A stretch of DNA of 32,000 nucleotides from Candidatus Saccharimonadota bacterium (GCA_020632335.1 JACKFV010000001.1:420001-452000), one strand, 5' to 3'. Shown: positions 1,964 through 31,300, counted from the stretch's first letter. Translations and numbers: made by a program. Notes: generated from the letters alone by a model not told the origin.

Positions 1964-2620
1964 ATGGCAGTACAACAGGTCACGGCGACGCGCATGACGC
2001 TCCTGGAGCTCAAGAACAAGGTCACCACCGCCAACCGCGGGCATAAGCTGCTGAAGGACAAGCGCGATGGACTCATGCAGGAGTTCCTCACCATAGTGCA
2101 GCGGGCCAAGCAGCTGCGCAAGCAAGTGGAGCAGTCGCTGCGAGATGCCAACCTGGCCTTCCTGGAGGCGCAGATAGCCACCCCCAGACCCTTCATCGAG
2201 AATGCCCTGGCTGAGCCCGTGAAGGATATTCGCATCGGTGTACGGACCAAAACCATCATGGCCGTGAAGATCCCCGAGTTCACCGTAGAGGTGACCGACC
2301 GCGCCGTGCAGTACTCCGCGCTGCAAACCCGTGCCAGCCTGGACATCACCCTGGAGAAGTTCAGCAGTGTCATCGCCCTGCTGGTGGAGGTAGCTGAGAC
2401 CGAGAAGGCCGCCGAGAATATGGCCCTGGAGATAGAAAAAACCCGCCGACGGGTCAACGCGCTGGAGCACAAGATGATCCCCGACCTGCAAGACACGCTG
2501 AAGTACGTGAAGATGCGCCTGGGTGAGACCGAGCGCTCGGCGATTGTGCAGGTGATGGCGATCAAGAACCTGATAGAAGCTAACGAGAACCGTAATACTC
2601 CCCCGCATGCCTCTGCGTAA
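1964..2620 (+). CDS. ntpD: V/A-type ATP synthase subunit D (central stalk)
   Basis: Full-length match to the subunit D pattern. N-terminal motif: TRMTLLELKNKVTTANRGHKLLKDKRDGLMQEF. C-terminal motif: EIEKTRRRVNALEHKMIPDL...KYVKMRLGETER. The size (218 aa) is typical. Confidence 0.9.
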   Translation: MAVQQVTATRMTLLELKNKVTTANRGHKLLKDKRDGLMQEFLTIVQRAKQLRKQVEQSLRDANLAFLEAQIATPRPFIENALAEPVKDIRIGVRTKTIMAVKIPEFTVEVTDRAVQYSALQTRASLDITLEKFSSVIALLVEVAETEKAAENMALEIEKTRRRVNALEHKMIPDLQDTLKYVKMRLGETERSAIVQVMAIKNLIEANENRNTPPHASA

Positions 2621-3677
2621 TTCCCTCCTCTCCAGCCTGCTCACCAGCGCCCTGGTGCTGCTCACCAGTACCGCGCTGGCTTCGCCCCTGCCTGCGGACT
2701 ACCCGCTCTATCGCCAGATCCTCGAGCAGGAGCCCGGCATGCAGCAGCTGGAGCTTCCGCGGGAGGTGCTGCAAGACGTCGACCGTCGGGGCAAGAACCT
2801 GGCGATATTCGACGAGGAGAACACGCTGGTGCCCTTTACCCTGGCTACTAGCGGGGTGGAGCGCCTGGACGGCACGACGCTCACGGTGGTAGAGCAGACC
2901 TTTGGCGATGGGCAGGACCCGCAGTACCTGGTGGATGGAGATATTAGCACCATCGCTGGCTTTGCTAACCGCAGCGATGAGAGCCTGGTGCCCTCGGTTA
3001 CCCTTGCCTTCCCGAGGCCCGTGCCCCTGGCGGCGGTGAGTTTTGACCCGTCGTATAAGGCTGCTATCCCCCGGCTGGTGCTGCGCGCAGGCCTCACGCG
3101 AGAGAGCATGAAGACGCTCTACAGCGGGGAGTACCACCCCGAGATCCTCCAAGAAACCGACCCTATTAGCTACCTGGAGGTGCAGTTCCCCGCCGCGAGT
3201 GACCTGGTGCTCAAGGATATCTTCGTCTACGCAGCGCCACGCTGGGGGCTGCGCTTCCCGGCTGAGGACGGCAAACGCTATACCCTGGCCTATGGCGGCA
3301 GCCGTGACTACGCGGCGTATCGTCATCGGGAGACGTTCTCAGACACCTTTACCCCGAATGCACGGCTGAGTAACCCCATCACCACCGCAGACTATACGGG
3401 AGAAATCCCCCAGTACCTGCCCGATACCGACCGTGACGGCGTGGCCAACGCGGAGGACAACTGCCCGCTGATGGCCAATGAGGCGCAGGACGACAGTGAC
3501 CGAGACGGCATCGGGGACGTGTGTGACAGCCAAGACAACCGTCAGTCGGTGGGGGAGACACTCCGAGAGGCTGGCTCTGCACTGACCAATAGTAACGCTA
3601 CCGCGCTCTACCTGGTGCTGGCGGCGCTGCTCATCGGCATTATTGTCTTTGCGCTGCACCACCGCAAACGCCGCTAA
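2607..3677 (+). CDS. Secreted, C-terminally anchored surface protein with thrombospondin type-3 (Ca-binding) repeats
   Basis: Signal peptide MPLRNSLLSSLLTSALVLLTSTALA. TSP3-like repeats DTDRDGVANAEDNCPLMANEAQDDSDRDGIGDVCD at 3423-3527. C-terminal TM segment plus basic tail (ALYLVLAALLIGIIVFALHHRKRR). The start overlaps the ntpD stop by 14 nt. Confidence 0.8.
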   Translation: MPLRNSLLSSLLTSALVLLTSTALASPLPADYPLYRQILEQEPGMQQLELPREVLQDVDRRGKNLAIFDEENTLVPFTLATSGVERLDGTTLTVVEQTFGDGQDPQYLVDGDISTIAGFANRSDESLVPSVTLAFPRPVPLAAVSFDPSYKAAIPRLVLRAGLTRESMKTLYSGEYHPEILQETDPISYLEVQFPAASDLVLKDIFVYAAPRWGLRFPAEDGKRYTLAYGGSRDYAAYRHRETFSDTFTPNARLSNPITTADYTGEIPQYLPDTDRDGVANAEDNCPLMANEAQDDSDRDGIGDVCDSQDNRQSVGETLREAGSALTNSNATALYLVLAALLIGIIVFALHHRKRR

Positions 3678-7146: not shown

Positions 7147-9273
7147 ATGGACCTCCGCCCCGCAGACGAACCGAAAAAAATCACGCCAGAAGCCATCGCT
7201 GAGGCGCTCTCCAGCTATTGTGTGGACTTCACGGCTAAGGCCAAGGCGGGCAAAATAGACCCCATCATCGGCCGCGATGAAGAAATCCGCCGGACGATAC
7301 AGATCCTCAGCCGTCGGACGAAGAATAACCCCGTGCTCATCGGGGAGGCGGGGGTAGGCAAAACCGCCATTGTGGAGGGGCTAGCGTATGAGATTTTCAA
7401 GAAAAAAGTGCCCGAGAGCATCCAGGATAAACGCGTGCTGGCGCTGGACCTCGCCGCGCTCATCGCGGGGGCGAAGTACCGGGGGGAGTTTGAGGAGCGG
7501 CTGAAACTGGTGCTGAAGGGGGTGCAAGACGCTGCCGGGGGCATCATTCTCTTCATCGACGAGCTGCATACCATCATCGGTGCGGGGGCCAGTAGCGGCG
7601 CGATGGACGCCAGCAATCTCCTTAAACCCGCGCTCAGCAGGGGCGAGCTGCACTGCATTGGCGCCACCACCACGGCGGAGTACCGCCAGTACATCGAGAA
7701 AGACCCGGCACTGGAGCGACGGTTCCAGCAGGTCTACATCGACGAGCCTACGCGTGAGGAAGCCCTGGCGATCCTCCGGGGTATCCGCGAACGGTATGAG
7801 ATCCACCATGGGGTGCGCATCACCGACGACGCGCTCATCGCCGCGATTGACCTCTCCATCCGCTACCTGCCCGACCGCCGCCTGCCCGACAAGGCTATCG
7901 ACCTTATGGACGAGAGCATGAGCAAGCTGAAGCTGGAGATAGAGAGCGAGCCTGAGGAAATCGCGGCCAAGAAGCGTGACCTCATGACCCTAGAACTAGA
8001 GGCCGCGGCGATCAAATCTGACCCGAGTAAAGCCGTGGAACTGGCCACTATCCGTGAGAAAATCACGAGTACGCAGGCCAGCCTCGCCGCGCTGCAGGAG
8101 CGATGGAAGGGTGAGCAAGAGCTCCTGGAGGCCATCAAGCACACCAAGGCGAAGATCGACAAGCTCATGCTGGACGCCGATAAAGCCCGCCGAGACGCCG
8201 ACTATGCCCGCCTGGCGGAGATCCTCCACGGGCAGCTGCCGGCGCTGGAGCAACAGCTGAAGGAGCAACAAGACAAGACCAAGGGCGCGCTGGTGCGTGA
8301 CCAGGTAACGGCTGAGGACATCGCTAAGATAGTGGCTAAGTGGACGGGTATCCCTGCGACGAAGCTCACGCAGACCGAGAGCCAGAAGCTCTCACACCTG
8401 GAGGACGAGCTACACCGCCGTGTCATCGGGCAGCACCGGGCCGTCACCGCGGTGTCTAACGCTATCCGTCGCAACCGCACCGGGCTGACTAAGGGCGATA
8501 AACCCATCGGGAGTTTCCTCTTCCTCGGCCCTACGGGAGTGGGGAAAACCGAGCTAGCCAAGGCCCTGGCAGCCGAGCTCTTTGACACCGAGAAGGCCAT
8601 GATACGCTTTGACATGAGCGAGTTTATGGAGGCTCACTCGGTGAGCCGGCTCATTGGCGCGCCACCGGGATATATCGGCTTTGAGGCCGGGGGCGAGCTG
8701 ACCGAGGCGCTGCGTACTCACCCCTACTGCGTGCTGCTTTTCGACGAGGTGGAGAAGGCCCACCGGGACGTCTTTAATATCTTCCTGCAGCTGCTGGATG
8801 AGGGGCACATCACCGACAGTAAGGGCCGCCAGGTGAGTGGCAAGCAGTGCATTGTGATCTTCACCTCGAACCTCGCGCATGATCTCTTCCTCGGCGAGGT
8901 CATGCCCGACGACCTCACCGTACGCAAAGAGCTACAGCGCTTCTTCCGCCCGGAGTTCCTCAACCGTTTAGACTCTATCATTGGCTTCCACCCGCTGAGC
9001 AAAGACCACATCGCGCAGATCCTCGGCATACAGCTGAGCAGCCTGCGCAAACGCCTGCAAGAGAAGGGCATCGCTATCACCTTCACTGACGCCGCCCAGG
9101 CCTGGCTGACCGAGCGAGGATTCGACCCCGAGTTTGGTGCCCGGCCGCTCAAACGCGTCATAGAGCGCGAGCTGCTTGACCCCCTGGCCATGCAGATGAT
9201 AGAAGGCACGGTGAGCCAGAACATCACGGTAGACGTCGCTGATGGGCAGATACTCTTCCGCGGTGGGGGGTAA
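7147..9273 (+). CDS. clpB: ClpB-type AAA+ disaggregase without the Clp_N domain
   Basis: Two Walker A motifs ([16 protein letters not shown]) with a long coiled-coil M-domain between the nucleotide-binding domains. The protein starts just before [14 protein letters not shown], so the roughly 150-aa N-domain is absent. Confidence 0.95.
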
Positions 9274-9288
9274 AAACAGTGCTAAACA

Positions 9289-9316
9289 TTGACAAAAACC
9301 ACAGATAGTTTACAGT
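9289..9316 (+). promoter_or_regulatory. Putative promoter of the islet membrane-protein gene
   Basis: TTGACA, 16 nt, TACAGT, in the AT-rich DNA immediately after clpB. The ATG at 9360 lies about 44 nt downstream. Confidence 0.4.
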
Positions 9317-9617
9317 GTGTACAAATAGTTCTTTTACTTTATTCAAAAATTTTTAATGTATGAAAAAATTATTATTGGCGTCGACGTCATTTTTATTACT
9401 TTTTGTGCCATTTTTAATAGTGGTGTACATGTTTAAAGTCCTTCTGGGAGAGCAACCCGATGATTTTTGTGGTGCCGCTGCAGGAACTGTCGTCTTGATT
9501 GGTGTAGTGATTCTTGTGGTGATGATTCTAGTGGTGGTTTCTATCATGACTAATGATGGGGAGCGAATTCCCCAGCTAAAGCGAAAACGGAATATTCTCA
9601 CCCTCTGGGTACTAATA

Positions 9618-9625
9618 TTTGGTTA
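9618..9625. repeat. Target-site duplication, left copy (TTTGGTTA)
   Basis: Identical 8-mer directly abutting both IS ends; the other copy is at 10358-10365. Confidence 0.9.
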
Positions 9626-9646
9626 GGTTCAAGATAAGTTGAGAGG
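9626..9646. repeat. IS terminal inverted repeat (left)
   Basis: GGTTCAAGATAAGTTGAGAGG is the exact reverse complement of 10337-10357. Confidence 0.9.
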
Positions 9647-10306
9647 GTTATTACGGAGTAATTTAAGAATTATAGCATAGATATTTTGGTAGCGGTAATT
9701 GAATCTAAATTCGGATTCTTTGAGGTGAAGATAAAAGTGAGATTTGTGAATTCCACGAAATTTAGCAAGTCTGACTTTTGCAATTCCCCAGAAATTTTCA
9801 ATACCATTAATGTGTGACTTTCCACGAGCAAATTCGTCTTTTGAATGATAAACACGATGATGTGTATATCCATTCAAAATTAAGCTATCATAACTCTTCC
9901 ATCCATCAGAATTTACGGTGCTACCTTCCAATATCTTCCCTTTGATAATTGGTATTATCTCTTTCCTAGAAACATTTTGTATGATTTGAGTATATACTTT
10001 CCCGTCTCGCTTTAGCAGGCCAAATACAATTGTTTTTCCTTTTGCCCCTCTGCCTCTTTTTCCACGTACTCGTTTTGCCCCAAAGTAACTTTCATCCACT
10101 TCAAACACGCCACTTTCACGAGTAGCCTTTTCACTTTCTTCTGCAATTATTTCTCGTATTTTCGTGACAATTTTGTTTATTGTTGGACGAGAAATATTTG
10201 TCAGTTGTGCAATTTTTTCAGCTTCTAAATCCAAAGAAAAATACTTTATTATTTCTCTAAATTTAGCTTCTGAAATTCTTGAACGATAGCAGTATTTATT
10301 CTTCAT
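9629..10306 (-). CDS. IS1595-family (ISXO2-like DDE) transposase
   Basis: 225 aa with an N-terminal HTH-like region (IAQLTNISRPTINKIV). Core motifs: FEVDESYFG...KRGRGAKGKTIVFGLLKRDGKVYTQ...VNSDGWKSYD...HINGIENFWG. Confidence 0.9.
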   Translation of the reverse strand: MKNKYCYRSRISEAKFREIIKYFSLDLEAEKIAQLTNISRPTINKIVTKIREIIAEESEKATRESGVFEVDESYFGAKRVRGKRGRGAKGKTIVFGLLKRDGKVYTQIIQNVSRKEIIPIIKGKILEGSTVNSDGWKSYDSLILNGYTHHRVYHSKDEFARGKSHINGIENFWGIAKVRLAKFRGIHKSHFYLHLKESEFRFNYRYQNIYAIILKLLRNNPLNLS

Positions 10307-10336
10307 TTCTGGTAAGAGGATAAGTCTTTTTTTTAT

Positions 10337-10357
10337 CCTCTCAACTTATCTTGAACC
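10337..10357. repeat. IS terminal inverted repeat (right)
   Basis: CCTCTCAACTTATCTTGAACC is the exact reverse complement of 9626-9646. Confidence 0.9.
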
Positions 10358-10365
10358 TTTGGTTA
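10358..10365. repeat. Target-site duplication, right copy (TTTGGTTA)
   Basis: Identical to 9618-9625. Confidence 0.9.
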
Positions 10366-10823
10366 TATATGCCTCGTATCATCGGGGATAGGATATACCT
10401 CCAGACCTAGCGAGGGTGTGCATGTCTTCCAGAATGGGAAATATGTTCCTGAGGTTCACTTTAATAACCCGTTTTTGCCGGACTGTATGGTTCGGTACTA
10501 TGAGGAGAAGCAGAAACTCCACCATGTCTTTAACTACGAGCACGATGGTGTCATATACCACATACCCGTAGAAGCCTCGCTTCGCTTCTCTATTGAGAGT
10601 AAGGCCTTTCAAAAAGATATCGATAAGTATGGTGGAGATCTGGATAAAATGCTAGAGGAGTTGGCACGCAGGATCTTTGATAATGCTCGCTACTCATTCT
10701 CAATGCCGCCCACAGGAGGTGTATTAATGCAAAAAATTCCCGAAAGTACCCGAGAAATTATTGCTGAAACACCCTATACTCGGCTTGAGATCACGTACTA
10801 ATTAGTAGCTAAAATAACAGGCT

Positions 10824-10842
10824 GTCGGGTATATTACCCGAT
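10824..10842 (+). terminator. Possible hairpin terminator after the islet gene
   Basis: CGGGTA-tat-TACCCG forms a perfect 6-bp stem (10826-10840), extendable by T:A and G:T pairs. It lies 23 nt after the TAA stop. The T-tract that follows is weak (tggccttctttctg). Confidence 0.35.
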
Positions 10843-10915
10843 GGCCTTCTTTCTGTCTCCAGAATTTTCTATCACAATGCCAAATGCCAGCGGAGAAATA
10901 CATATGCTTCCCTGA

Positions 10916-10960
10916 GGGGGAGCCGAACTCACGACCTCTCACCGGCTGAGCTATAGCCCC
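10916..10960 (-). other. Decayed tRNA-like fragment (5' acceptor/D-arm plus T-loop-like piece, no anticodon arm)
   Basis: Minus strand reads GGGGCTATAGCTCAGCCGGTGAGAGGTCGTGAGTTCGGCTCCCCC. The first 25 nt or so look like a tRNA 5' acceptor and D-arm, and GAGGTC-GTGAG-TTCGGCT looks like a variable loop and T-arm. I cannot build an anticodon stem, a 3' T-stem or a 3' acceptor strand. Confidence 0.3.
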
Positions 10961-11023
10961 ACAAAGAACCAGAACTACCCTCTCCTTGTACACCAGGGTG
11001 TCAAATGAGATTTAGTGACCCTA

Positions 11024-12299: not shown

Positions 12300-12327
12300 T
12301 TGCGCTCGTGACTCTGTGGCCTACACT
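12300..12327 (+). promoter_or_regulatory. Leaderless-type promoter of prfA
   Basis: TTGCGC, 16 nt, TACACT, 6 nt, ATG 12334. Confidence 0.5.
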
Positions 12328-12333
12328 CCCCCT

Positions 12334-13392
12334 ATGCAAGAGAAAGCCCTCGCCCTCATCACCGAGCTCCAGCACCTGCAGGCACAGCTGCGTGACCCGG
12401 CCATCTATAGCGATGTCACCCACGCTACGCGCGTTGCGCAGCAGCTGAAAGCTCTCGAGCCCAAGGCCGCCATTGCGAGCAGCTATCTCTCCCTCCTGCA
12501 GCAGCGACAAGACGCCGAGCAGCTTCTCTCCAGCGAGAAAGACCCCGAGATGCTGGAGCTAGCAAAAGCCGAGCTGGAAGACGCCAAGACCCAGCTCCCT
12601 ACGGCCGAAGAAGCGCTCACTCAGGCGCTCATACCCGTAGACCCAGATGACGAGCGCGACTGCATCATCGAGGTGCGTGCTGGCGTCGGGGGTGACGAAG
12701 CCTGCCTCTTTGCTGAGGAAGCCGAGCGTATGTGGCTGCGCTTTGCGGAGATGCAGGGCTTTACCACGCATCTGCTCAGCAGTACCCCGAATGAGAGCGG
12801 AGGGATCAAAGAGAGCATCATCGAGGTGCACGGCTATGGGGCCTATGGCAAGCTGAAGTACGAGAGCGGCGTGCATCGGGTGCAGCGCGTGCCGCGGACC
12901 GAGTCGCAGGGGCGGCTGCACACCAGTGCCATCAGCGCGGTGGTCATGCCCGAGGTAGAGCAGACCACCGTGGAGATCCACCCCAATGACCTGCGTATAG
13001 ACGTCTTCCGTAGCTCGGGGAATGGCGGCCAGAGCGTCAACACCACTGACAGCGCCGTGCGCGTCACGCACCTGCCTACCGGCATTATCGTCACCTGCCA
13101 GGATGATAAATCTCAGCACAAGAATAAGGCCAAAGCCATCAAGGTGCTGGCGTCGCGCCTCCACGCCATAGAGGAGGAAGCCCGCCGAGAAGCGCTCGGA
13201 GAGAAGCGCCTCAGCAGCATTGGCTCGGGGGATAGGAGCGAAAAAGTCCGCACCTATAACTTCCCACAAGACCGCGTGACCGACCACCGCATTGGTCAGA
13301 ATTTTAGCAATCTTCCGGGCGTACTGGACGGTAACCTCCTGAAGATAGTCGAGGCCCTGGCGGTAGAAGAGCAGCGCCTGCGGCTGGCGTAA
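12334..13392 (+). CDS. prfA: Peptide chain release factor 1
   Basis: HRVQRVPRTESQGRLHTS carries the PxT tripeptide. The GGQ motif is in SSGNGGQSVNTTDSAVRVTHLPTG. ATG 12334 is preferred over GTG 12316 because of the -10 box position. Confidence 0.95.
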   Translation: MQEKALALITELQHLQAQLRDPAIYSDVTHATRVAQQLKALEPKAAIASSYLSLLQQRQDAEQLLSSEKDPEMLELAKAELEDAKTQLPTAEEALTQALIPVDPDDERDCIIEVRAGVGGDEACLFAEEAERMWLRFAEMQGFTTHLLSSTPNESGGIKESIIEVHGYGAYGKLKYESGVHRVQRVPRTESQGRLHTSAISAVVMPEVEQTTVEIHPNDLRIDVFRSSGNGGQSVNTTDSAVRVTHLPTGIIVTCQDDKSQHKNKAKAIKVLASRLHAIEEEARREALGEKRLSSIGSGDRSEKVRTYNFPQDRVTDHRIGQNFSNLPGVLDGNLLKIVEALAVEEQRLRLA

Positions 13393-13433
13393 CCCCTAGC
13401 GCGGCTGCCTCAGGCCTGCTATAGTAGAGACGC

Positions 13434-23089: not shown

Positions 23090-23201
23090 GGACAGGGGAA
23101 GAGAACTGTAGTGTTAGTTTTTGATAAAGGCACCATAAAGAACCGAGGTCGGGGTTTCTCATCATGGAGCATGGGGATTAAGGCAACACGGGGGCCTCAT
23201 G

Positions 23202-23275
23202 TGGCAGGCGCGGTAGGAATCGAACCCACACCAAGGGCTTTGGAGACCCTTGTTCTACCATTAAACTACGCGCCT
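23202..23275 (-). tRNA. tRNA-Trp (anticodon CCA), with 3' CCA encoded
   Basis: The minus strand folds by hand as AGGCGCG-TA-GTTT-AATGGT-AGAAC-A-AGGGT-CTCCAAA-GCCCT-TGGT-GTGGG-TTCGATT-CCTAC-CGCGCCT-G-CCA. It has a 7-bp acceptor stem, and the anticodon loop is CT-CCA-AA. Confidence 0.95.
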
Positions 23276-23294
23276 GTGCAAAAGAATCCCACTC

Positions 23295-23322
23295 ACTATA
23301 GCCCTGCTAGACTATCACGCAA
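23295..23322 (-). promoter_or_regulatory. Putative promoter of tRNA-Trp
   Basis: Minus strand: TTGCGT (inside the ruvC 3' end), 16 nt, TATAGT. The tRNA 5' end lies 19 nt downstream of the -10 box. Confidence 0.4.
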
Positions 23323-23794
23323 CTCTATTTTGCAGGCGATACCACACCGTATGCGCCACCGCCACGGCATCAGCCGCATCGTCGGTAATGGTATCAGTAG
23401 CATAGGTCAGCCGCGCCATACGCATCATTTCGGGTTTGGTGGCCTGTCCATTCCCCGTGAAGCTCTTCTTTACCTCACTCGGTGCAGGTTCATAGAGGAG
23501 GCACCCACGCCGTTGCCCCAGGTACAGCAGCACCCCGCGCACCGCGGCTACGTGCAGCGCGGTAGTGGTATTCCGCGCAAAGTACAGCCCCTCTACCCCC
23601 ATGGCATCTGGCTGGTAGAGCTCCAGCAGGTGCGTTATATCTGCGGCTACTTCGGCGATGCGCTCTGGTAGTGGCTGCCCAGCGCTGGTGGTGATGACCC
23701 CACCAGTGAGGAGCTGCGGTGACCGTTCCCCCTGCACCACGGCAAAACCACAGCGCTCATAGCCGGGGTCTATACCCAGGACGGTAATGGTCAT
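23315..23794 (-). CDS. ruvC: Crossover junction endodeoxyribonuclease RuvC
   Basis: VLGIDPGYERCGFAVV...YFARN...ITDDAADAVAVAH. The ATG overlaps the nrdR TGA stop (ATGA). Confidence 0.9.
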   Translation of the reverse strand: MTITVLGIDPGYERCGFAVVQGERSPQLLTGGVITTSAGQPLPERIAEVAADITHLLELYQPDAMGVEGLYFARNTTTALHVAAVRGVLLYLGQRRGCLLYEPAPSEVKKSFTGNGQATKPEMMRMARLTYATDTITDDAADAVAVAHTVWYRLQNRVA

Positions 23795-25244: not shown

Positions 25245-25273
25245 TTGCCAGTGGCGTGTCTTTCTCGTATAGA
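25245..25273 (+). promoter_or_regulatory. Leaderless-type promoter of the methyltransferase gene
   Basis: TTGCCA, 17 nt, TATAGA, 7 nt, ATG 25281. Confidence 0.55.
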
Positions 25274-25946: not shown

Positions 25947-26008
25947 CCTGCCCATCACGTCAAGCTAAAGTCACCTCACAGCCGTGCCTATCGCTCTATG
26001 CTGTTGGG

Positions 26009-27175
26009 GTGAAAACACTGCGCACTGCCGCCATCACCCTGAGCCTGCTGGCCGCTACTGCGCTGGTGGTGCCGTACGCGCAAGGGGCCTTCCTCCACTC
26101 TAGCCTCTTCTTCTCGCAGGAGGATACCGAGGACCAGAGCCTCTTCTCGGGGCTGGTCAGCCGCATGTGCGAGCCCGTCTTTGCCTACCATCTGGACAAA
26201 CAGCGCACCTACCCGGCGCTGACGAAGGAGGACTTTACCATCGCTTATGACGGCATGCCGCTCTTCGAGCAAGACCCCAAGCAAGACCTGCTGGACTGGG
26301 ACGTCAATGTGCAGACCTATCACACGGCGGTCAACTGTGCCTTTGAGCACGCCATGCATGACGCCGCAGCGTACATCCGTACCGCGCCGGAGTATGGAGC
26401 CAAGGCCGTGTATGAGTCGCGCGATGATAGTGCGGAGGCAGCGCTGTGGGAGGTGGACGATAGCATCCCCATCAAGATAGAGGACGACAGCTACCCCGGC
26501 CTGCCGATAGAAAGCCTAAGCGGCAGCAACGGCGCTGACGTAGCTAACGAGCCCTATTACATCTGGGAGCAGGAGGATATCCCCCAGCCACCGGCACACT
26601 GCGACGCCTACACGCCTGATAAGCTCCAGCAGCTGCAGAGCAACCTGCAGGGCCAGTACGGCACCCCCCACACGGGCGAGTGGTATGCCCTGCCCGGCGG
26701 GGAGACCCACCCGCAGTACCACCTCTATCACCAGTCCTTCGCGCCGCAGCAGATGACCCAGCTGATGCTCGAGGGGCTCTGGTGCCCGTATAACCTCTAT
26801 CTCTCGGCGATGGAGAATAACTCGCGCACTTTCTTTGACACCTATGAGTTCCTCTGGCCAGCGGATACCGACGGTGGCCAGCTGGATACCGACATCCGCT
26901 CTGCCAATATGACCCGGCGCTACAGAGACCTCTGGCAGCGGCGTTACCGAGAAGAGCGCGCCAAGGCCTGGGAGAGCCTCAAGACCATGCTGCACTACTA
27001 CCAGCAGTACGTAGAGGACTATGACCAGTACGCGGTGGAGCGCAGCGTGGCCGACGGGCTCATCCTCGTGCGAGACCAGTGGCAGAAGATCCAGGATAAC
27101 GTCGAGGCCTGGAAGGCCAAGTTCAGCAAACTCACGGCTAATGGCTGCCCGCAAGACGGCAACGCCTGCCAGTAA
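26009..27175 (+). CDS. Secreted acidic orphan protein P1 (388 aa)
   Basis: GTG start. Signal peptide MKTLRTAAITLSLLAATALVVPYAQG. C-terminal helical region ending in ...TANGCPQDGNACQ. I recognise no family. Confidence 0.75.
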   Translation: MKTLRTAAITLSLLAATALVVPYAQGAFLHSSLFFSQEDTEDQSLFSGLVSRMCEPVFAYHLDKQRTYPALTKEDFTIAYDGMPLFEQDPKQDLLDWDVNVQTYHTAVNCAFEHAMHDAAAYIRTAPEYGAKAVYESRDDSAEAALWEVDDSIPIKIEDDSYPGLPIESLSGSNGADVANEPYYIWEQEDIPQPPAHCDAYTPDKLQQLQSNLQGQYGTPHTGEWYALPGGETHPQYHLYHQSFAPQQMTQLMLEGLWCPYNLYLSAMENNSRTFFDTYEFLWPADTDGGQLDTDIRSANMTRRYRDLWQRRYREERAKAWESLKTMLHYYQQYVEDYDQYAVERSVADGLILVRDQWQKIQDNVEAWKAKFSKLTANGCPQDGNACQ

Positions 27176-27184
27176 TCCTCCGCT

Positions 27185-28852
27185 ATGCGCTGCTTTTTCT
27201 CGGTTCTCTCTCTCGTGCTCCTGCTCCTCAGCGGGCGGGCATGGGCACTGGAGCCGCCCTATAAGGCCACTGAGCCCCTGGGGATGTACGGGTATATCTA
27301 CCACCTTACCCTCCCCTATACCGAGGAAGACCAGCAGGAGATCAACGACCGGCTCCTACAGTATGGGCCGTATAAGTTCGGCTCTACGAATGTGCGGGGG
27401 CTCTTCCCCGTAGATCCGCATGAGGGCTATGACCGTGTGGCGCGGCTCTTCCTCGATGAGCTCACGCAGCAGGACATCCAGAACATCATGGCTGGGCAGC
27501 GCCCCGCACTGCTGGCAGATAAGACCGACATCCCCAGTACAGACGTCTTCCGCATCTATGAGATGGTCCGCCGGCAGCACGACTGGGAGCAAGAGCTGCG
27601 GCAGTTTGAGCGCACACTGCAGACCCGCCTCTCCCTGCTGACGCTGCACCGCGATGACCACATCACCGAGCGCATTGACGACACCGCGAGCAACCCCGCC
27701 ATGGGGAGGGACTTTGACATGCAGACGAGCGCGCTGAGCTTTGACCGCATCACAGCGTATAACGTCATTGATAATACGCTCTTCCAGGAGTGGAGCGATA
27801 GCGAGCTGGACGACACCACTGAGGCCAGCTATCCCTCGGCGGTGCTGCGGCGCCCTAACCTCTGTGACCGTACCGGCCCCCCTGCCGGCGCTACTCCCAG
27901 CCCGTGGGACGTCTACCACGAGGTGGACCCCCAAGCTAATGGGGAGGATCCGCCGTGGTATACCGTGCCCCACCGGATGACCCAGCGCACCGAGCCCTGC
28001 TATCAACAGCTCTATGAGGTGCCCCCGTCGGCTGACTTTGACCCCCTGAGTCTGGACCCTGCTAGTACCGTGCGCGGCTTGTACTTCAGCTGGATGAACG
28101 AGCGCACGCAGCTGCCCATCTACACCGACCGCTGCAACCTGCCCGAGCACCTGGGCGAGAAGGTAGAGAACGGCCAGGTACGCCTGCGCGTGGGGGAGGG
28201 CATGGAGAACTCTGGCCCCTGTAGCGGCTTCCGTAAGAGTGAGATAGACAGCAGTGGCGAGTGCATCACCTGCAGCATGACGGCCGTGCATGAAGACCTA
28301 CAGGAGCTCAACGAGCACCCGCTGTATGCCGAGTGTTTCTCGATGCAGACGGGCGGGCGGATGATCGTCAATGGTCTCAATGACCTGGGGTGTGAGCAGC
28401 GCATGCCGCCTGCAGAGCTCTTCGGTGGGTATGACAGTGGGCTCAAGAGCCTGCTGTGGGAGCAACGCCAGGACTTCTGGACCCTCCCCACACAGGGGAC
28501 GGAGAATGGTGGAGCGCCGCTCTCGCTCATCGCCAGCCGCTACCAGCCCTATGAGCAGCTCCCCTTTACCGAGGTTAGCTGCGCCCGGGCCCTCACCTTT
28601 GCCGAGGACGAACTGGCCAGCCGCGCTGTACAGGCCCTGCAGGAGTGCGAAGACCAGCGTGCTCTGCGGCGGGCCTCCCTATTGAAAAAGCTGGAGCACG
28701 AGAGCTATGCGCGGATGCAGCGGCTCTACGCTATGCGGATGGAAGAGGCGCACCGCGTGCTGAGCCATGACCTGACCGGTATGCTCATCACCCTCTCTCA
28801 TCTGCGGGACTACCTGGAGTGTCACGCAGACAACAAATGCAAGGTCAACTAA
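27185..28852 (+). CDS. Secreted acidic orphan protein P2 (555 aa)
   Basis: Starts 9 nt after P1. Signal peptide MRCFFSVLSLVLLLLSGRAWA. Cys-rich middle region. C-terminal helical region ending in ...YLECHADNKCKVN. Confidence 0.75.
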   Translation: MRCFFSVLSLVLLLLSGRAWALEPPYKATEPLGMYGYIYHLTLPYTEEDQQEINDRLLQYGPYKFGSTNVRGLFPVDPHEGYDRVARLFLDELTQQDIQNIMAGQRPALLADKTDIPSTDVFRIYEMVRRQHDWEQELRQFERTLQTRLSLLTLHRDDHITERIDDTASNPAMGRDFDMQTSALSFDRITAYNVIDNTLFQEWSDSELDDTTEASYPSAVLRRPNLCDRTGPPAGATPSPWDVYHEVDPQANGEDPPWYTVPHRMTQRTEPCYQQLYEVPPSADFDPLSLDPASTVRGLYFSWMNERTQLPIYTDRCNLPEHLGEKVENGQVRLRVGEGMENSGPCSGFRKSEIDSSGECITCSMTAVHEDLQELNEHPLYAECFSMQTGGRMIVNGLNDLGCEQRMPPAELFGGYDSGLKSLLWEQRQDFWTLPTQGTENGGAPLSLIASRYQPYEQLPFTEVSCARALTFAEDELASRAVQALQECEDQRALRRASLLKKLEHESYARMQRLYAMRMEEAHRVLSHDLTGMLITLSHLRDYLECHADNKCKVN

Positions 28853-28863
28853 TATGAAGTTTC

Positions 28864-29421
28864 ATGCGCTTTTCTCTTCTTCGGCAGCGGCGGCTACTTC
28901 TCAGCCTGGGGCTGGGGCTCGCGCTGGTGGCGGGGATCGCGCTAGCGCAGCAGACCAGCAAGTGGGATATCTCCATCTACGGGACGCTACAGGATATGGA
29001 AGATACCCGCTTTGGCGATGATGCGCTCACGGGGGAGGACTCCATCAGCCAGGTGCAGGAGCAGCTACGGGTGAATCTGGCCCAGAAGAACCAGGCGGTA
29101 TATAAACGTAGCGATGCCTTCTACGACGAGTGGATACGCGAGCCGGCCTATGCCAATGCTGTTGCTGAGGATATCCTGCGGGCTGAGGAGACGTGGGACT
29201 CGCTCACGCGCCTGATGGATGACTACGCGTATGAGAGCGCGTATATCTATAGCAATGTGCTGCAGAGCGCCTATGACCACGCTGCTATGCATAAACAGGT
29301 CGAGCAGGTGTCGCTCAGTGCGGTAAAGGGCATCTATCACGAGTCTCAGCGTATGAACGGCTTTATCTGCAGTATCTGTCAGCTCCATAACTCCCCCAGC
29401 CAATGCCCCGCCTGCCACTAA
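28864..29421 (+). CDS. Secreted orphan protein P3 (185 aa) with a C-terminal CxxC-x8-CxxC-H tail
   Basis: Starts 11 nt after P2. Signal peptide MRFSLLRQRRLLLSLGLGLALVAGIALA. The body looks helical. The tail is FICSICQLHNSPSQCPACH. Confidence 0.75.
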   Translation: MRFSLLRQRRLLLSLGLGLALVAGIALAQQTSKWDISIYGTLQDMEDTRFGDDALTGEDSISQVQEQLRVNLAQKNQAVYKRSDAFYDEWIREPAYANAVAEDILRAEETWDSLTRLMDDYAYESAYIYSNVLQSAYDHAAMHKQVEQVSLSAVKGIYHESQRMNGFICSICQLHNSPSQCPACH

Positions 29422-30041
29422 GCCTGCTGCTCACAGTGCTCTCTACCACGGCCGCAGCGCAGGTGGTGGAGCCTCCCATTGCCGTGTGCCCCTATAACCC
29501 CGACTATAGCGAGGTCTACACCGACCCCGAACTCGAGCGCGTGTGCCTGCTGGACGACCCGCTGCAAGAGGTCACGCGGGATGGCTTCATGGCTGAGCTG
29601 GACCGCTTCCAGCATCAGGTAGACCGTGCTGCGCTGGATATGATCACCGATAGCGCGCAGCTGGCCAGCCACCTGGTCTATCAGCTACGGGAGCACGTGG
29701 ACTGCCTGGAGCAGCTGTGCTATAGCGCCTGGCTGGAGTGCACGCAGCAGGTACCCATTACCCCTTCACAGACCAGCGAGAGCCTGCAGTGGTGCCTGCA
29801 TACCATTGAGTGGATCACCCAGGTGCAGGAGGAAAAGATAGAGTCCACCCTGCTGGAGCGGCAGAATCTGCTCGCTACAGGCCTACTAGACGAGAAGCAC
29901 TATGCCCTCCACTGGCGGTACGACGCGTATATGGAGCCCGCGCTACTGAGCCTCAGCTCGCAGCTGCACGAGTTCCTCAAGGGCATCACGGCGCTCATTA
30001 AGGTACCGTTTGCCTTCCGGCCGTTGTGGTGGTGGGTCTAG
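29403..30041 (+). CDS. Secreted orphan protein P4 (212 aa)
   Basis: Overlaps P3 by 19 nt. Signal peptide MPRLPLSLLLTVLSTTAAA. Six Cys residues in the N-terminal half. Helical C-terminal half ending in the aromatic tail VPFAFRPLWWWV. Confidence 0.75.
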   Translation: MPRLPLSLLLTVLSTTAAAQVVEPPIAVCPYNPDYSEVYTDPELERVCLLDDPLQEVTRDGFMAELDRFQHQVDRAALDMITDSAQLASHLVYQLREHVDCLEQLCYSAWLECTQQVPITPSQTSESLQWCLHTIEWITQVQEEKIESTLLERQNLLATGLLDEKHYALHWRYDAYMEPALLSLSSQLHEFLKGITALIKVPFAFRPLWWWV

Positions 30042-30047
30042 CAGTCC

Positions 30048-31265
30048 CTACTGCGTAATGCTATGCGCGATGCTGAGGAGGGTATCCCTCAGTGCTGCCG
30101 GGCCGGTGAGCGAGAAGAGAGTACGGCTGTCGCGCGGGACGTGCACGGTGATGGTATCGCCATTCTGGATCTCTCGGAGCGTGCTGGGGGGGTTCTGTGT
30201 CTTTAAGATATCGAGCCGGAACTGCATGGTCTGCTCGGTGGGGATTTCTCCCGTTGCAAAGCCGATGGTGGTGATGCTCTCCCCCACTGGCCCAAAGTGC
30301 ATGTAGTAGTACTGCCAGGGTATCTGTACATTGAACCCGTAGTAGTTGCTGGTGTAGCTGTGGTAGCGGCTGCCGAGCATGGGGATGTAGTCGCTGGGGT
30401 TGCCCTCCTCGGGCAGGGGGTCTGGCGTGGGGGGGGTGGAAGGATCCGTACTCGGTGAAGTCTCTGCCGGTGCGGTGGGAGGGGATTCTGGCGTGGGGGG
30501 TTCCCCCTCCAGGAAGGTATTGAGCAGCGCCGCAAAGGCACGCTTACGGCTGTAGTCCTCGGCAGCGCTGGTGAACCAGAACCGGTATTCCTGCCCCGGC
30601 GAGGCCTGAGAACGGAGAATGACCTCTTGGCGCTCGGTACCGTTGGCCTCCAGCACGACGGTCTTGATGGCCGGCAGAGAGCCGATCTGGCTCTGCGCGG
30701 GGGTGTCGGGCGAGGTAATGGCCCGGCGCTCGAAGCTGAGAAAGACCTTCTTCAGCTCGTCCTCGGCCTGGAAGAAGTAGGCGATTCCCTCGGGGGAGGG
30801 GCTCCAGCGCCAGTCGGCCGGCACGGTGAACTGGTAGCCGTCTCCCGTATAGTGCTGCTCGGTGGGGGGTGGGGTCTTGGTGGGGAGTGGGAGCTCGGGC
30901 GTGGTGACGGCCTCTACCCAGAATATCCGGCGCATTTTCTCGGGTCGGAACCTCCCGGTGAGTTCTACGCTCGTGTTCTCGCTCTCCTGCAGGGGTACTG
31001 CGCTGCTGGCCAGGTAGGCGATGAGCTTGCCATCGGCCTCCAGCCGGTGGGTGGCGGCGGTGGGCACACTGACGGAAAACGGCAGCACTACCCCCTCGAG
31101 GGTCTGCAAGGTGGGTTCCTCCAGCGCGGCCATGGGGTCACTATCGGCCAGCTGACCGGCTACCCCGGTGGCGGCGTCGTGCACATAGGTCTTCAGGCTG
31201 GTGCCTGCACAGGCCGTCAGCCCCACCCCCAGCAGTACCACGAGCGTATAGCGTAGCATTCCCAT
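30048..31265 (-). CDS. Lipoprotein with three modules joined by Pro/Thr-rich linkers
   Basis: Lipobox LLGVGLTAC after a signal sequence. Linkers: PELPLPTKTPPPTE and EPPTPESPPTAPAETSPSTDPSTPPTPDPLPEE. Modules 2 and 3 both open with Y(T)..GY.F.VP..W-like strands. Confidence 0.8.
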   Translation of the reverse strand: MGMLRYTLVVLLGVGLTACAGTSLKTYVHDAATGVAGQLADSDPMAALEEPTLQTLEGVVLPFSVSVPTAATHRLEADGKLIAYLASSAVPLQESENTSVELTGRFRPEKMRRIFWVEAVTTPELPLPTKTPPPTEQHYTGDGYQFTVPADWRWSPSPEGIAYFFQAEDELKKVFLSFERRAITSPDTPAQSQIGSLPAIKTVVLEANGTERQEVILRSQASPGQEYRFWFTSAAEDYSRKRAFAALLNTFLEGEPPTPESPPTAPAETSPSTDPSTPPTPDPLPEEGNPSDYIPMLGSRYHSYTSNYYGFNVQIPWQYYYMHFGPVGESITTIGFATGEIPTEQTMQFRLDILKTQNPPSTLREIQNGDTITVHVPRDSRTLFSLTGPAALRDTLLSIAHSITQ

Positions 31266-31272
31266 CTCTCCC

Positions 31273-31300
31273 AGCGTAGATTCTGCAGAGGGATCGTCAA
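31273..31300 (-). promoter_or_regulatory. Leaderless-type promoter of the lipoprotein gene
   Basis: Minus strand: TTGACG, 16 nt, TACGCT, 7 nt, ATG 31265. Confidence 0.5.

Follow-up and report, generated by a model that had tools for sequence, protein, structure and literature searches.

What lets bacteria of the Candidate Phyla Radiation (CPR, or Patescibacteria) attach to other cells and live at their expense is an open question, and much of their small genomes is devoted to exported proteins that cannot be annotated. The locus studied here raises that question in compact form: are four orphan exported proteins, encoded by adjacent genes, parts of one surface structure, or are they separate proteins that are merely expressed together? 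The genes, called P1 to P4, occupy positions 26,009 to 30,041 of a 32,000-nucleotide (nt) stretch of DNA (GCA_020632335.1, JACKFV010000001.1:420001-452000), which was analyzed at its full length and is called the window. It lies on a contig of 630,865 bp in a metagenome-assembled genome deposited as 'Candidatus Peribacteria bacterium', a CPR lineage; an earlier reading of the sequence alone (the original prediction) had taken the genome to be CPR-like, and the deposited label bears this out. The same prediction proposed that P1 to P4 are subunits of one extracellular or envelope assembly, perhaps for host interaction. Our analysis supports a native operon that is restricted to one lineage and encodes four soluble proteins, exported by Sec, probably held by disulfide bonds, and made in coupled pairs. 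To the further proposal that the four proteins act together at the cell surface we assign a probability of about 0.4; the idea of a single assembly or host-interaction apparatus is neither supported nor refuted.

Coding status and organization of the genes

All four genes lie on the plus strand. P1 (H6771_02085; 26009..27175) starts with GTG and encodes 388 amino acids (aa), P2 (H6771_02090; 27185..28852) encodes 555 aa, P3 (H6771_02095; 28864..29421) 185 aa, and P4 (H6771_02100; 29403..30041) 212 aa. P1 and P2 are separated by 9 nt and P2 and P3 by 11 nt; P3 and P4 overlap by 19 nt, and the shared bases encode the end of P3 (CPACH) and the start of P4 (MPRLPLS). The original prediction had the sizes, gaps, and overlap exactly right. 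Together with a convergent lipoprotein gene, these genes make up H6771_02085 to H6771_02105, all of which were deposited as encoding hypothetical proteins.

Long spurious open reading frames (ORFs) are frequent in high-GC genomes, and no homologues of P1 to P4 were found in the searches described below, as would be expected if the genes were chance, unexpressed open frames in GC-rich DNA. The base composition of the genes refutes this explanation, to which we give almost no chance. The GC contents at the first, second, and third codon positions (GC1, GC2, and GC3) of P1 to P4 were ~0.62-0.66, 0.38-0.42, and 0.73-0.82, respectively, like those of the conserved genes in the window. The strong GC3 periodicity is found in these very frames, and the high-GC codon position shifts frame precisely at the P2/P3 and P3/P4 boundaries, whereas the long antisense ORFs in the region have the mirror pattern typical of shadow ORFs. 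Four consecutive, well-formed signal peptides also argue against chance frames. Because of the codon-position GC, the shifts at the boundaries, and the shadow pattern of the antisense ORFs, we conclude that P1 to P4 are real coding genes. Since their stop codons are all TAA or TAG, the gene calls do not depend on the status of UGA in this lineage.

The use of stop codons in the window is of some interest in itself. Among 25 window genes the stops were TAG in 11, TAA in 10, and TGA in 4, making TGA the rarest despite a GC content of 61%; of those four, one ends the transposase gene of a foreign insertion sequence (IS). The conserved genes of the window were never interrupted by TGA, and therefore TGA is not a sense codon here. 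The only release factor encoded in the window (12316-13392) lacks the SPF motif of RF2 and has PRT in the place of the PxT motif of RF1, so that it looks RF1-like. Gracilibacteria and Absconditabacteria recode UGA, and the avoidance of TGA in this genome is notable beside them.

Signal peptides and the absence of anchors

Each of the four proteins had been predicted to begin with a classical signal peptide. We judged the N-termini with a heuristic based on the n-region, the mean Kyte-Doolittle hydropathy of a 10-residue core, and the cleavage site. In every one of the four, a basic n-region was followed by a hydrophobic core and by a cleavage site with small residues, as is characteristic of substrates of Sec and signal peptidase I; such substrates have an h-region of 7-15 or more residues and small residues at -3 and -1. 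The mean hydropathy of the h-region was 2.4-3.0 in P1 to P4, compared with at most 1.7 in the cytoplasmic proteins of the window. By the same heuristic, the signal peptides comprise residues 1-26 of P1 (MKTLRTAAITLSLLAATALVVPYAQG↓A; 26009..26086, plus strand), 1-21 of P2 (MRCFFSVLSLVLLLLSGRAWA↓L; 27185..27247, plus), 1-28 of P3 (MRFSLLRQRRLLLSLGLGLALVAGIALA↓Q; 28864..28947, plus), and 1-19 of P4 (MPRLPLSLLLTVLSTTAAA↓Q; 29403..29459, plus). Cleavage at AQG↓A, AWA↓L, ALA↓Q, and AAA↓Q would leave mature proteins of 362, 534, 157, and 193 aa that begin with AFLHS (P1), LEPPY (P2), QQTSK (P3), and QVVEPPI (P4). The predicted N-termini of P2 and P4 thus both carry EPP, as had been pointed out, but the shared tripeptide is weak evidence (p ~0.03, a post hoc estimate).

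The n-region of P3 is rich in arginine (RQRR, followed by LLL). Its sequence QRRLLLS fits the motif of the twin-arginine translocation (Tat) pathway, (S/T)-R-R-x-F-L-K, in the RR pair and two hydrophobic residues only. A Tat-type signal on P3 is conceivable, from the RR followed by LLL.

No feature that would hold the mature proteins in the membrane or on the wall was found among those tested. The maximum 19-residue Kyte-Doolittle average in mature P1 to P4 was at most 1.0, so that none contains a membrane helix. The lipobox [LVI][ASTVI][GAS]C was absent from all four and within the block occurred only in the neighboring lipoprotein (30048-31265; LTAC). Neither a sortase motif of the LPxTG type (LPx[TSA][GAN]) nor a C-terminal transmembrane segment was present. 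The C-termini (-ACQ in P1, -CKVN in P2, -ACH in P3, and -WWWV in P4) had no transmembrane helix or basic cluster of the kind found in the PEP-CTERM, MYXO-CTERM, and GlyGly-CTERM sorting tags, and the sorting-domain profiles of NCBIfam did not match any of the four. On these sequence features we rejected the identification of P1 to P4 as lipoproteins, sortase substrates, or proteins with a C-terminal sorting tag. Because they lack a transmembrane segment, a lipobox, and an LPxTG motif, the four proteins should be released from the membrane.

Cysteines and C-terminal tails

Three of the proteins had been described as ending in a short cysteine loop and the fourth in an aromatic tail, and the tails read exactly that way. 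P1 ends in GCPQDGNACQ with a C-x6-C pair (C380 and C387; 27146..27169, plus strand). P2 ends in ECHADNKCKVN with a C-x5-C pair (C546 and C552; 28820..28840, plus). The tail of P3, CSICQLHNSPSQCPACH (29368..29418, plus), has the arrangement CxxC-x8-CxxCH (C169, C172, C181, and C184), with H185 as the last residue of the protein. The aromatic tail of P4, FAFRPLWWWV (30009..30038, plus), is too short and too weakly hydrophobic for a membrane helix (maximum 19-residue Kyte-Doolittle average, 1.0). At least two cysteines in the last 17 residues were found in three of the four operon proteins and in none of 22 other window proteins. Given the cysteine content of each protein, the chance of terminal pairs in three of four was ~1e-3, as a summed per-protein binomial with a 17-residue window chosen post hoc.

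The numbers of cysteines in mature P1, P2, P3, and P4 were 6, 12, 4, and 6, all of them even, and those of P3 are all in its tail. The other cysteine-bearing proteins of the window with signal peptides had 2 and 4, so that the number was even in six of six. A bias toward even numbers of cysteines marks exported proteomes that form disulfides (PMC2823432), and the genomes of Ca. Peribacter include a gene for a disulfide-formation protein (PMC4736985). The even counts fit an extracytoplasmic, disulfide-bonded location and are independent of the signal peptides as support for it. Because of these counts and the Peribacter disulfide-formation protein, the simplest reading is that P1 to P4 would form intramolecular disulfides, some of them closing small loops that staple the C-termini.

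The tail of P3 (CSIC-x8-CPACH) might instead form a Cys4 metal site or a haem-c site, and the operon could then be an extracytoplasmic redox or metal module centered on P3, whose tail would bind a metal or a c-type haem or act as a thiol-disulfide relay; P3 might then be exported in folded form by Tat. The motifs have the right form: CxxCH is that of haem-c attachment and CxxC-Xn-CxxC that of a zinc knuckle. P2 has an internal CITC, the n-region of P3 is RQRRLLL, and P3 is predicted, at low confidence, to be all-helical, as are class II cytochromes c. Nevertheless, P3 matched no cytochrome profile in Pfam or NCBIfam at E <=1, the same libraries contained no thioredoxin-like or metal-binding match to the operon proteins at that threshold and no profile that supports a metal or haem site in the P3 tail, and a structure search returned nothing. 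A histidine as the final residue is atypical for a haem ligand, and four cysteines fit two disulfides equally well. CPR bacteria are generally not known to have haem pathways. The described Peribacteria are without most components of the respiratory chain (PMC4736985). We consider a redox or metal module improbable.

Expression signals and probable coupling of the genes

Shine-Dalgarno (SD) sequences are nearly absent from the genes of the window. A hexamer resembling a -10 element (TAnnnT or TATAGA) and starting 12-16 nt before the start codon was found for 14 of 23 genes, compared with 10.6% of random positions, and several of these genes also had a TTGAC-type -35 element 17 nt upstream of the hexamer. 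Examples of such sites are at 117-122, 13420-13425, 25268-25273, 25997-26002, and 31273-31300. Because of the position of the hexamer and the near-absence of SD sequences, most mRNAs of this genome seem to be leaderless.

The hexamer TATGCT lies 12 nt before the P1 start (25997..26002, plus strand); it has no good -35 element but is likely to be the promoter of a leaderless transcript that covers P1 and P2 and may extend further. A second hexamer, TAATAT, lies 14 nt before the P3 start (28850..28855, plus), includes the P2 stop codon, and is a possible internal promoter for P3 and P4. The P2 and P4 starts are preceded by no -10 box and by no SD sequence. We therefore infer that ribosomes reach P2 and P4 from the preceding genes, P1 and P3, respectively, and the operon is best seen as two putatively coupled pairs, P1-P2 and P3-P4. 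A consensus scan revealed no convincing terminator within the block. A class I methyltransferase gene on the same strand ends 62 nt upstream of P1, and transcription of the operon would come from the P1 promoter, with possible additions by read-through out of the methyltransferase gene and by an internal start before P3.

A second case of an acidic exported protein that is coupled to an upstream gene and lacks its own -10 box was seen elsewhere in the window. The gene for V-type ATPase subunit D (1964-2620, plus strand) overlaps the next gene (2607-3677, plus) by 14 nt, and the product of the latter has a signal peptide, a thrombospondin type 3 (calcium-binding) repeat, a pI of 4.6, and two cysteines.

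Coupling bears on whether the proteins cooperate. P1 to P4 could all be exported and co-regulated and yet work independently as binding proteins, decoys, or variable surface antigens, with the operon serving to synchronize their expression. They share no sequence similarity or domain, they differ greatly in size, and P3 may have its own promoter. Orphan secreted proteins are, moreover, abundant in CPR genomes, some of them very highly expressed (PMC10936435; PMC4736985). Against independent action, the tight spacing and the lack of initiation signals at P2 and P4 favor stoichiometric co-production, and the terminal cysteine pair is common to three of the proteins and found in no other protein of the window. 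On this evidence independent action is rather unlikely, although it is the main alternative to a joint role.

Composition, helices, and structure models

The original prediction described the proteins as rich in D, E, Q, Y, and W. Relative to 19 other window proteins, P1 to P4 were enriched 2.65-fold in C, 2.5-fold in W, 1.7-fold in Y, 1.5-fold in D, and 1.4-fold in Q, so that the description holds for D, Q, Y, and W; it does not hold for E, which was not enriched (1.05-fold). K was depleted in the same comparison. The mature proteins are acidic, with isoelectric points (pI) of 4.5-4.8 (4.5 for P1, 4.8 for P2, and 4.5 for P4) and net charges of -12 to -34, and this acidity is owed as much to low K. 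Exported proteins encoded elsewhere in the window are just as acidic, and acidity is therefore characteristic of what this organism exports and not of the operon.

Each protein had also been said to end in a long amphipathic helix. Long helix-prone stretches free of proline and glycine were present in all four, at residues 291-349 of P1, 461-531 of P2, 95-155 of P3, and 62-117 and 122-159 of P4; they are C-terminal in P1 to P3 and central in P4. The helical hydrophobic moment exceeded that of shuffled sequences in P3 (z 2.6), was marginal in P1 (z 1.8), and did not exceed shuffles in P2 and P4. A significant heptad pattern was found at residues 518-545 of P2 only, where 1 of 200 shuffles reached the score. 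Thus, the helix-prone stretches stand, whereas amphipathicity is significant in P3 alone.

The center of P2 is rich in cysteine and proline and has no predicted secondary structure. AlphaFold2 run without an alignment gave models with a mean predicted local distance difference test score (pLDDT) of 38.9 for P2 and 51.6 for P3. These low-confidence models place long helices in the stretches identified above, and that of P3 is all-helical. A Foldseek search of the PDB with the low-confidence P3 model returned no match at E <=0.001. Beyond a mainly helical composition, the P2 and P3 models are unusable as evidence.

Searches for relatives and conservation of gene order

No family could be recognized for any of the proteins when the prediction was made, and the searches of Pfam, NCBIfam, PHROGs, PADLOC, PDB, and the protein collection agree. 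In the four profile libraries (Pfam, NCBIfam, PHROGs, and PADLOC) P1 to P4 and the lipoprotein had no match near the curated cut-off; the best was to TPR_ZFYVE26, with 16.6 bits against a cut-off of 27. PHROGs and PADLOC, which cover phage and anti-phage defense proteins, gave nothing below E = 0.079, and a phmmer search of the PDB sequences gave nothing for P1 to P4 below E = 0.2. A word-index search of 5.8 billion clustered proteins with P1 and P2 returned self-matches only, and an exhaustive HMMER search with P2 of 1.84 billion representatives of ~15 billion proteins returned P2 itself only. All four proteins form singleton clusters in the protein collection.

P3 and P4 were searched less well, with profile libraries, the PDB, exact-peptide scans, and tblastn against phage and plasmid collections. 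By exact-peptide scans P4 was not found in JGI metagenomes or IMG/VR and P3 was not found in IMG/VR, and tblastn of both against the phage and plasmid collections was negative. A concatenated word-index query of mature P3, mature P4, and the lipoprotein domains returned the lipoprotein self-match only and is uninformative on P3 and P4: both are in the collection and were nevertheless missed, which shows that concatenation is unsafe for such searches.

Paralogy among P1 to P4, the lipoprotein, and the rest of the window was not detected (Smith-Waterman z <=2.4; tblastn, noise only). This qualifies the claim of a shared terminal architecture. Terminal cysteine pairs do recur in P1 to P3, but the tails are not homologous by the same test, and amphipathicity is significant in one of the four proteins.

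The original prediction would have counted gene order that is not conserved in relatives against an assembly. Local synteny with the nearest relatives was sought with MscS and NrdR as anchors, and none was found. The closest MscS among GTDB species genomes is 48% identical and lies on a low-GC Peribacteria contig with unrelated neighbors. The closest NrdR in metagenomes is 73% identical and lies on a 2.1-kb contig of 41% GC with different neighbors; the remaining NrdR matches are at most 50% identical and on unidentified metagenome contigs. Formally, then, the gene order is not conserved, in that no relative carries the genes. Because the lineage is poorly sampled and its nearest relatives are too distant, synteny is uninformative here, and the absence of the operon elsewhere reflects sampling and fast evolution more than function. 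Logan contigs carrying P1/P2 and the lipoprotein (runs SRR12358675 and SRR12358676) were 100% identical to the window and showed no strain variation.

Neighboring genes and origin of the block

The lipoprotein gene (30048..31265, minus strand) is convergent to P4, its stop codon 6 nt from that of P4. The protein has the lipobox LTAC and a linker rich in proline, threonine, and serine at residues ~250-290. A promoter-like site, TTGACG-N17-TACGCT (31273..31300, minus), ends 7 nt before its start. No family match was found for it in the profile libraries, and the protein collection returned the protein itself alone. Although unproven, it is a possible partner of P1 to P4. Together with the lipoprotein gene the operon forms a block of 5.2 kb, between conserved genes, in which five exported orphan proteins are encoded side by side. 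Elsewhere in the window are housekeeping genes, which include those for ThrRS, a Clp ATPase, the release factor, CorA, ComM, UvrD/PcrA, NusA, MltG/YceG, TatD, NrdR, and MscS.

Beyond the lipoprotein gene and divergent from it, a gene beginning at ~31364 (plus strand) runs past the end of the window. Its product joins a polytopic membrane domain to HEAT repeats at the C-terminus (Pfam HEAT_2, E 1.5e-11), and the gene is seen in full in contig L047 (3-2069, minus).

In another conceivable role for the operon, secreted amphipathic helical proteins would bind a lipid or some other nutrient derived from the host, much as apolipoproteins do, and pass it to the lipoprotein and the membrane protein of a cell unable to make its own fatty acids. 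The long helix-prone segments, the amphipathic signal in P3 and P1, the tryptophan-rich tail of P4, and the presence of the lipoprotein and the polytopic HEAT-repeat protein next to the operon are all consistent with such a role, as is the absence of fatty-acid synthesis from Peribacteria (PMC4736985). The proposal is, however, pure analogy with no fold or family behind it; the membrane protein gene is divergent from the lipoprotein gene and outside the operon, and amphipathicity is not significant in P2 and P4. Lipid scavenging seems quite improbable.

The orphan status of five contiguous genes between conserved genes would also be expected if the block were cargo of a mobile element or a prophage remnant, for example structural or host-recognition proteins. 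Most of the evidence goes against this explanation. The GC content and GC3 of the operon region are those of the genome itself, and for that reason we regard the region as native. GC content across the window is 58-64%, except for one island of 42% at 9-11 kb, which holds the only clearly foreign element. The block is not flanked by an integrase, repeats, or a tRNA gene; none of its proteins matched PHROGs; P3 and P4 were unmatched in the phage, plasmid, and IMG/VR collections; and all four operon proteins have host-type signal peptides. A mobile origin is largely refuted, and we consider it very improbable.

The foreign element is a complete IS of the IS1595 family (9625-10358), bounded by terminal inverted repeats of 22 nt that match perfectly. 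The gene for its transposase (9629-10306, minus strand) lies within the 42% GC island (~9000-11000) of a genome of ~61% GC. A transposase encoded next to the closest NrdR relative mentioned above (L048, 1608-2144, on the metagenome contig of 41% GC) shares 83% identity with that of the IS, and this likeness suggests exchange with a low-GC relative. A tRNA-Trp gene (CCA anticodon) at 23202-23275 (minus) lies inside a 186-aa ORF at 23111-23671 (plus); that ORF is probably spurious, with a pI of 10.9 and no family match in addition to the tRNA that it contains.

Model for the operon

Taken together, these results are consistent with the following model. An operon of a high-GC member of the Peribacteria would make four soluble proteins that are exported by Sec and cleaved by signal peptidase I. 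With SD sites lacking in the genome, most transcripts would begin at the start codon, and P2 and P4 would probably receive ribosomes only by transfer from P1 and P3, a coupling that would fix output within each pair, P1-P2 and P3-P4, at similar levels. Outside the cytoplasmic membrane the proteins would fold with intramolecular disulfides, and small loops would staple the C-termini of P1, P2, and P3. The acidic, aromatic-rich, and largely helical products would then cooperate on the surface of a monoderm-like cell or within its wall zone. Most likely, they would contribute to a surface or host-contact structure that evolves fast, and the orphan lipoprotein next to the operon might tether it to the membrane. 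We favor a joint surface role because of the coupling, the terminal cysteine feature shared by three of the proteins, the adjacent orphan lipoprotein, and the investment of Peribacteria in export: they invest heavily in exported, cysteine-containing, strain-variable proteins that are thought to mediate attachment (PMC4736985).

Several points weigh against this model. Direct evidence for interaction among P1 to P4 is lacking, and operon membership alone does not prove a complex. The four proteins have no sequence similarity to one another, and the common tail is a loose motif in these sequences rather than a conserved module. Among the four, only P3 and the C-terminus of P2 show a significant amphipathic or heptad signal. 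The case for export was built on signal-peptide heuristics, from which the actual export of the proteins is presumed. No relative is available in which conservation or co-occurrence could be checked. Finally, with a weak -10 box before P3, the ratios in which the four genes are expressed may vary. For these reasons we regard as clearly unlikely the most specific form of the model, that P1 to P4, perhaps tethered by the lipoprotein, constitute a new disulfide-stapled heteromeric surface structure that contacts or exploits a host; if so, it would be a CPR surface apparatus of a new type, without a sequence relative among ~15 billion public proteins.

The operon is a compact example of the exported proteins that CPR genomes encode: four exported proteins in one lineage, with a recurring terminal cysteine feature and a neighboring orphan lipoprotein. 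If they do form one structure, they would represent a new CPR surface apparatus that is tractable for expression and structural work; if not, the locus illustrates the fast turnover of the surface proteome in poorly sampled CPR lineages. In either case, leaderless starts and coupling between genes appear to take the place of SD sites in the translation of this genome.

Comparison with known systems

In class II cytochromes c (cytochrome c'), which fold as four-helix bundles, CxxCH lies close to the C-terminus. P3 resembles them in being small, predicted to be exported, helical in its low-confidence model, and in having CxxCH at its C-terminal end (C181-P-A-C-H185). P3 differs from them in matching no family profile, in having the histidine as its last residue, and in having a second CxxC 8 residues upstream, and its lineage is not known to respire or to make haem. 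The likeness is one of motif, not a tested homology. Similarly, CSIC-x8-CPAC has the form of the Cys4 site of zinc ribbons and zinc knuckles, whereas an exported location would favor disulfides and no profile matched.

Type IV pilins, on which CPR bacteria rely for their type IV pili (PMC6744442), provide a parallel to the tails, since they are exported surface subunits in which a loop closed by a C-terminal cysteine pair, the D-region, stabilizes the subunit. The loops of P1 and P2, with 5-6 residues, are much shorter than the pilin D-region, and P1 to P4 have neither a class III signal (G↓F-T-L-x-E) nor a hydrophobic helix at the mature N-terminus. The identification of P1 to P4 as type IV pilins or pseudopilins was rejected, given their signal peptidase I signals, the lack of a class III signal, and the lack of a match to pilin profiles in Pfam.

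Some of the proteins most strongly expressed by host-attached Patescibacteria are secreted and have no known function (Kuroda et al. 2024; PMC10936435). Like P1 to P4, these come from CPR bacteria, have signal peptides, and are without annotation, and a role in host attachment was proposed for them. Recognizable folds, such as peptidoglycan-binding and Ig-like domains, were predicted for the Kuroda proteins, whereas P2 and P3 gave no confident fold.

The nearest comparison is with the large cysteine-rich extracellular proteins of Ca. Peribacter riflensis, which average 1,655 aa and ~7% cysteine and for which a role in attachment and variation between strains have been proposed (Anantharaman et al. 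2016; PMC4736985). P1 to P4 come from the same class, have signal peptides, are predicted to be extracellular, contain cysteine, are unannotated, and are encoded by clustered genes; attachment and strain variation are proposed for them as well. In contrast, they are only 185-555 aa long with 1.5-2.8% cysteine, and searches with P1 and P2 revealed no similarity to the Peribacter proteins. Because of their size and cysteine content and the lack of a repeat or family match, membership of P1 to P4 in that group (>~1,000 aa, ~7% cysteine, weak similarity to the cysteine-rich repeats of Myxococcus) was rejected. Tight coupling of four genes and terminal cysteine pairs have not been described for the Peribacter proteins. 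Orphan exported proteins are common in CPR genomes, and to a specialist this locus is ordinary dark matter and no surprise. As judged from their sequences, P1 to P4 belong to no known family; the sequences are wholly new, and in kind they appear to be another unannotatable exported set of a CPR bacterium, distinguished within that kind by tight pairwise coupling and terminal cysteine pairs.

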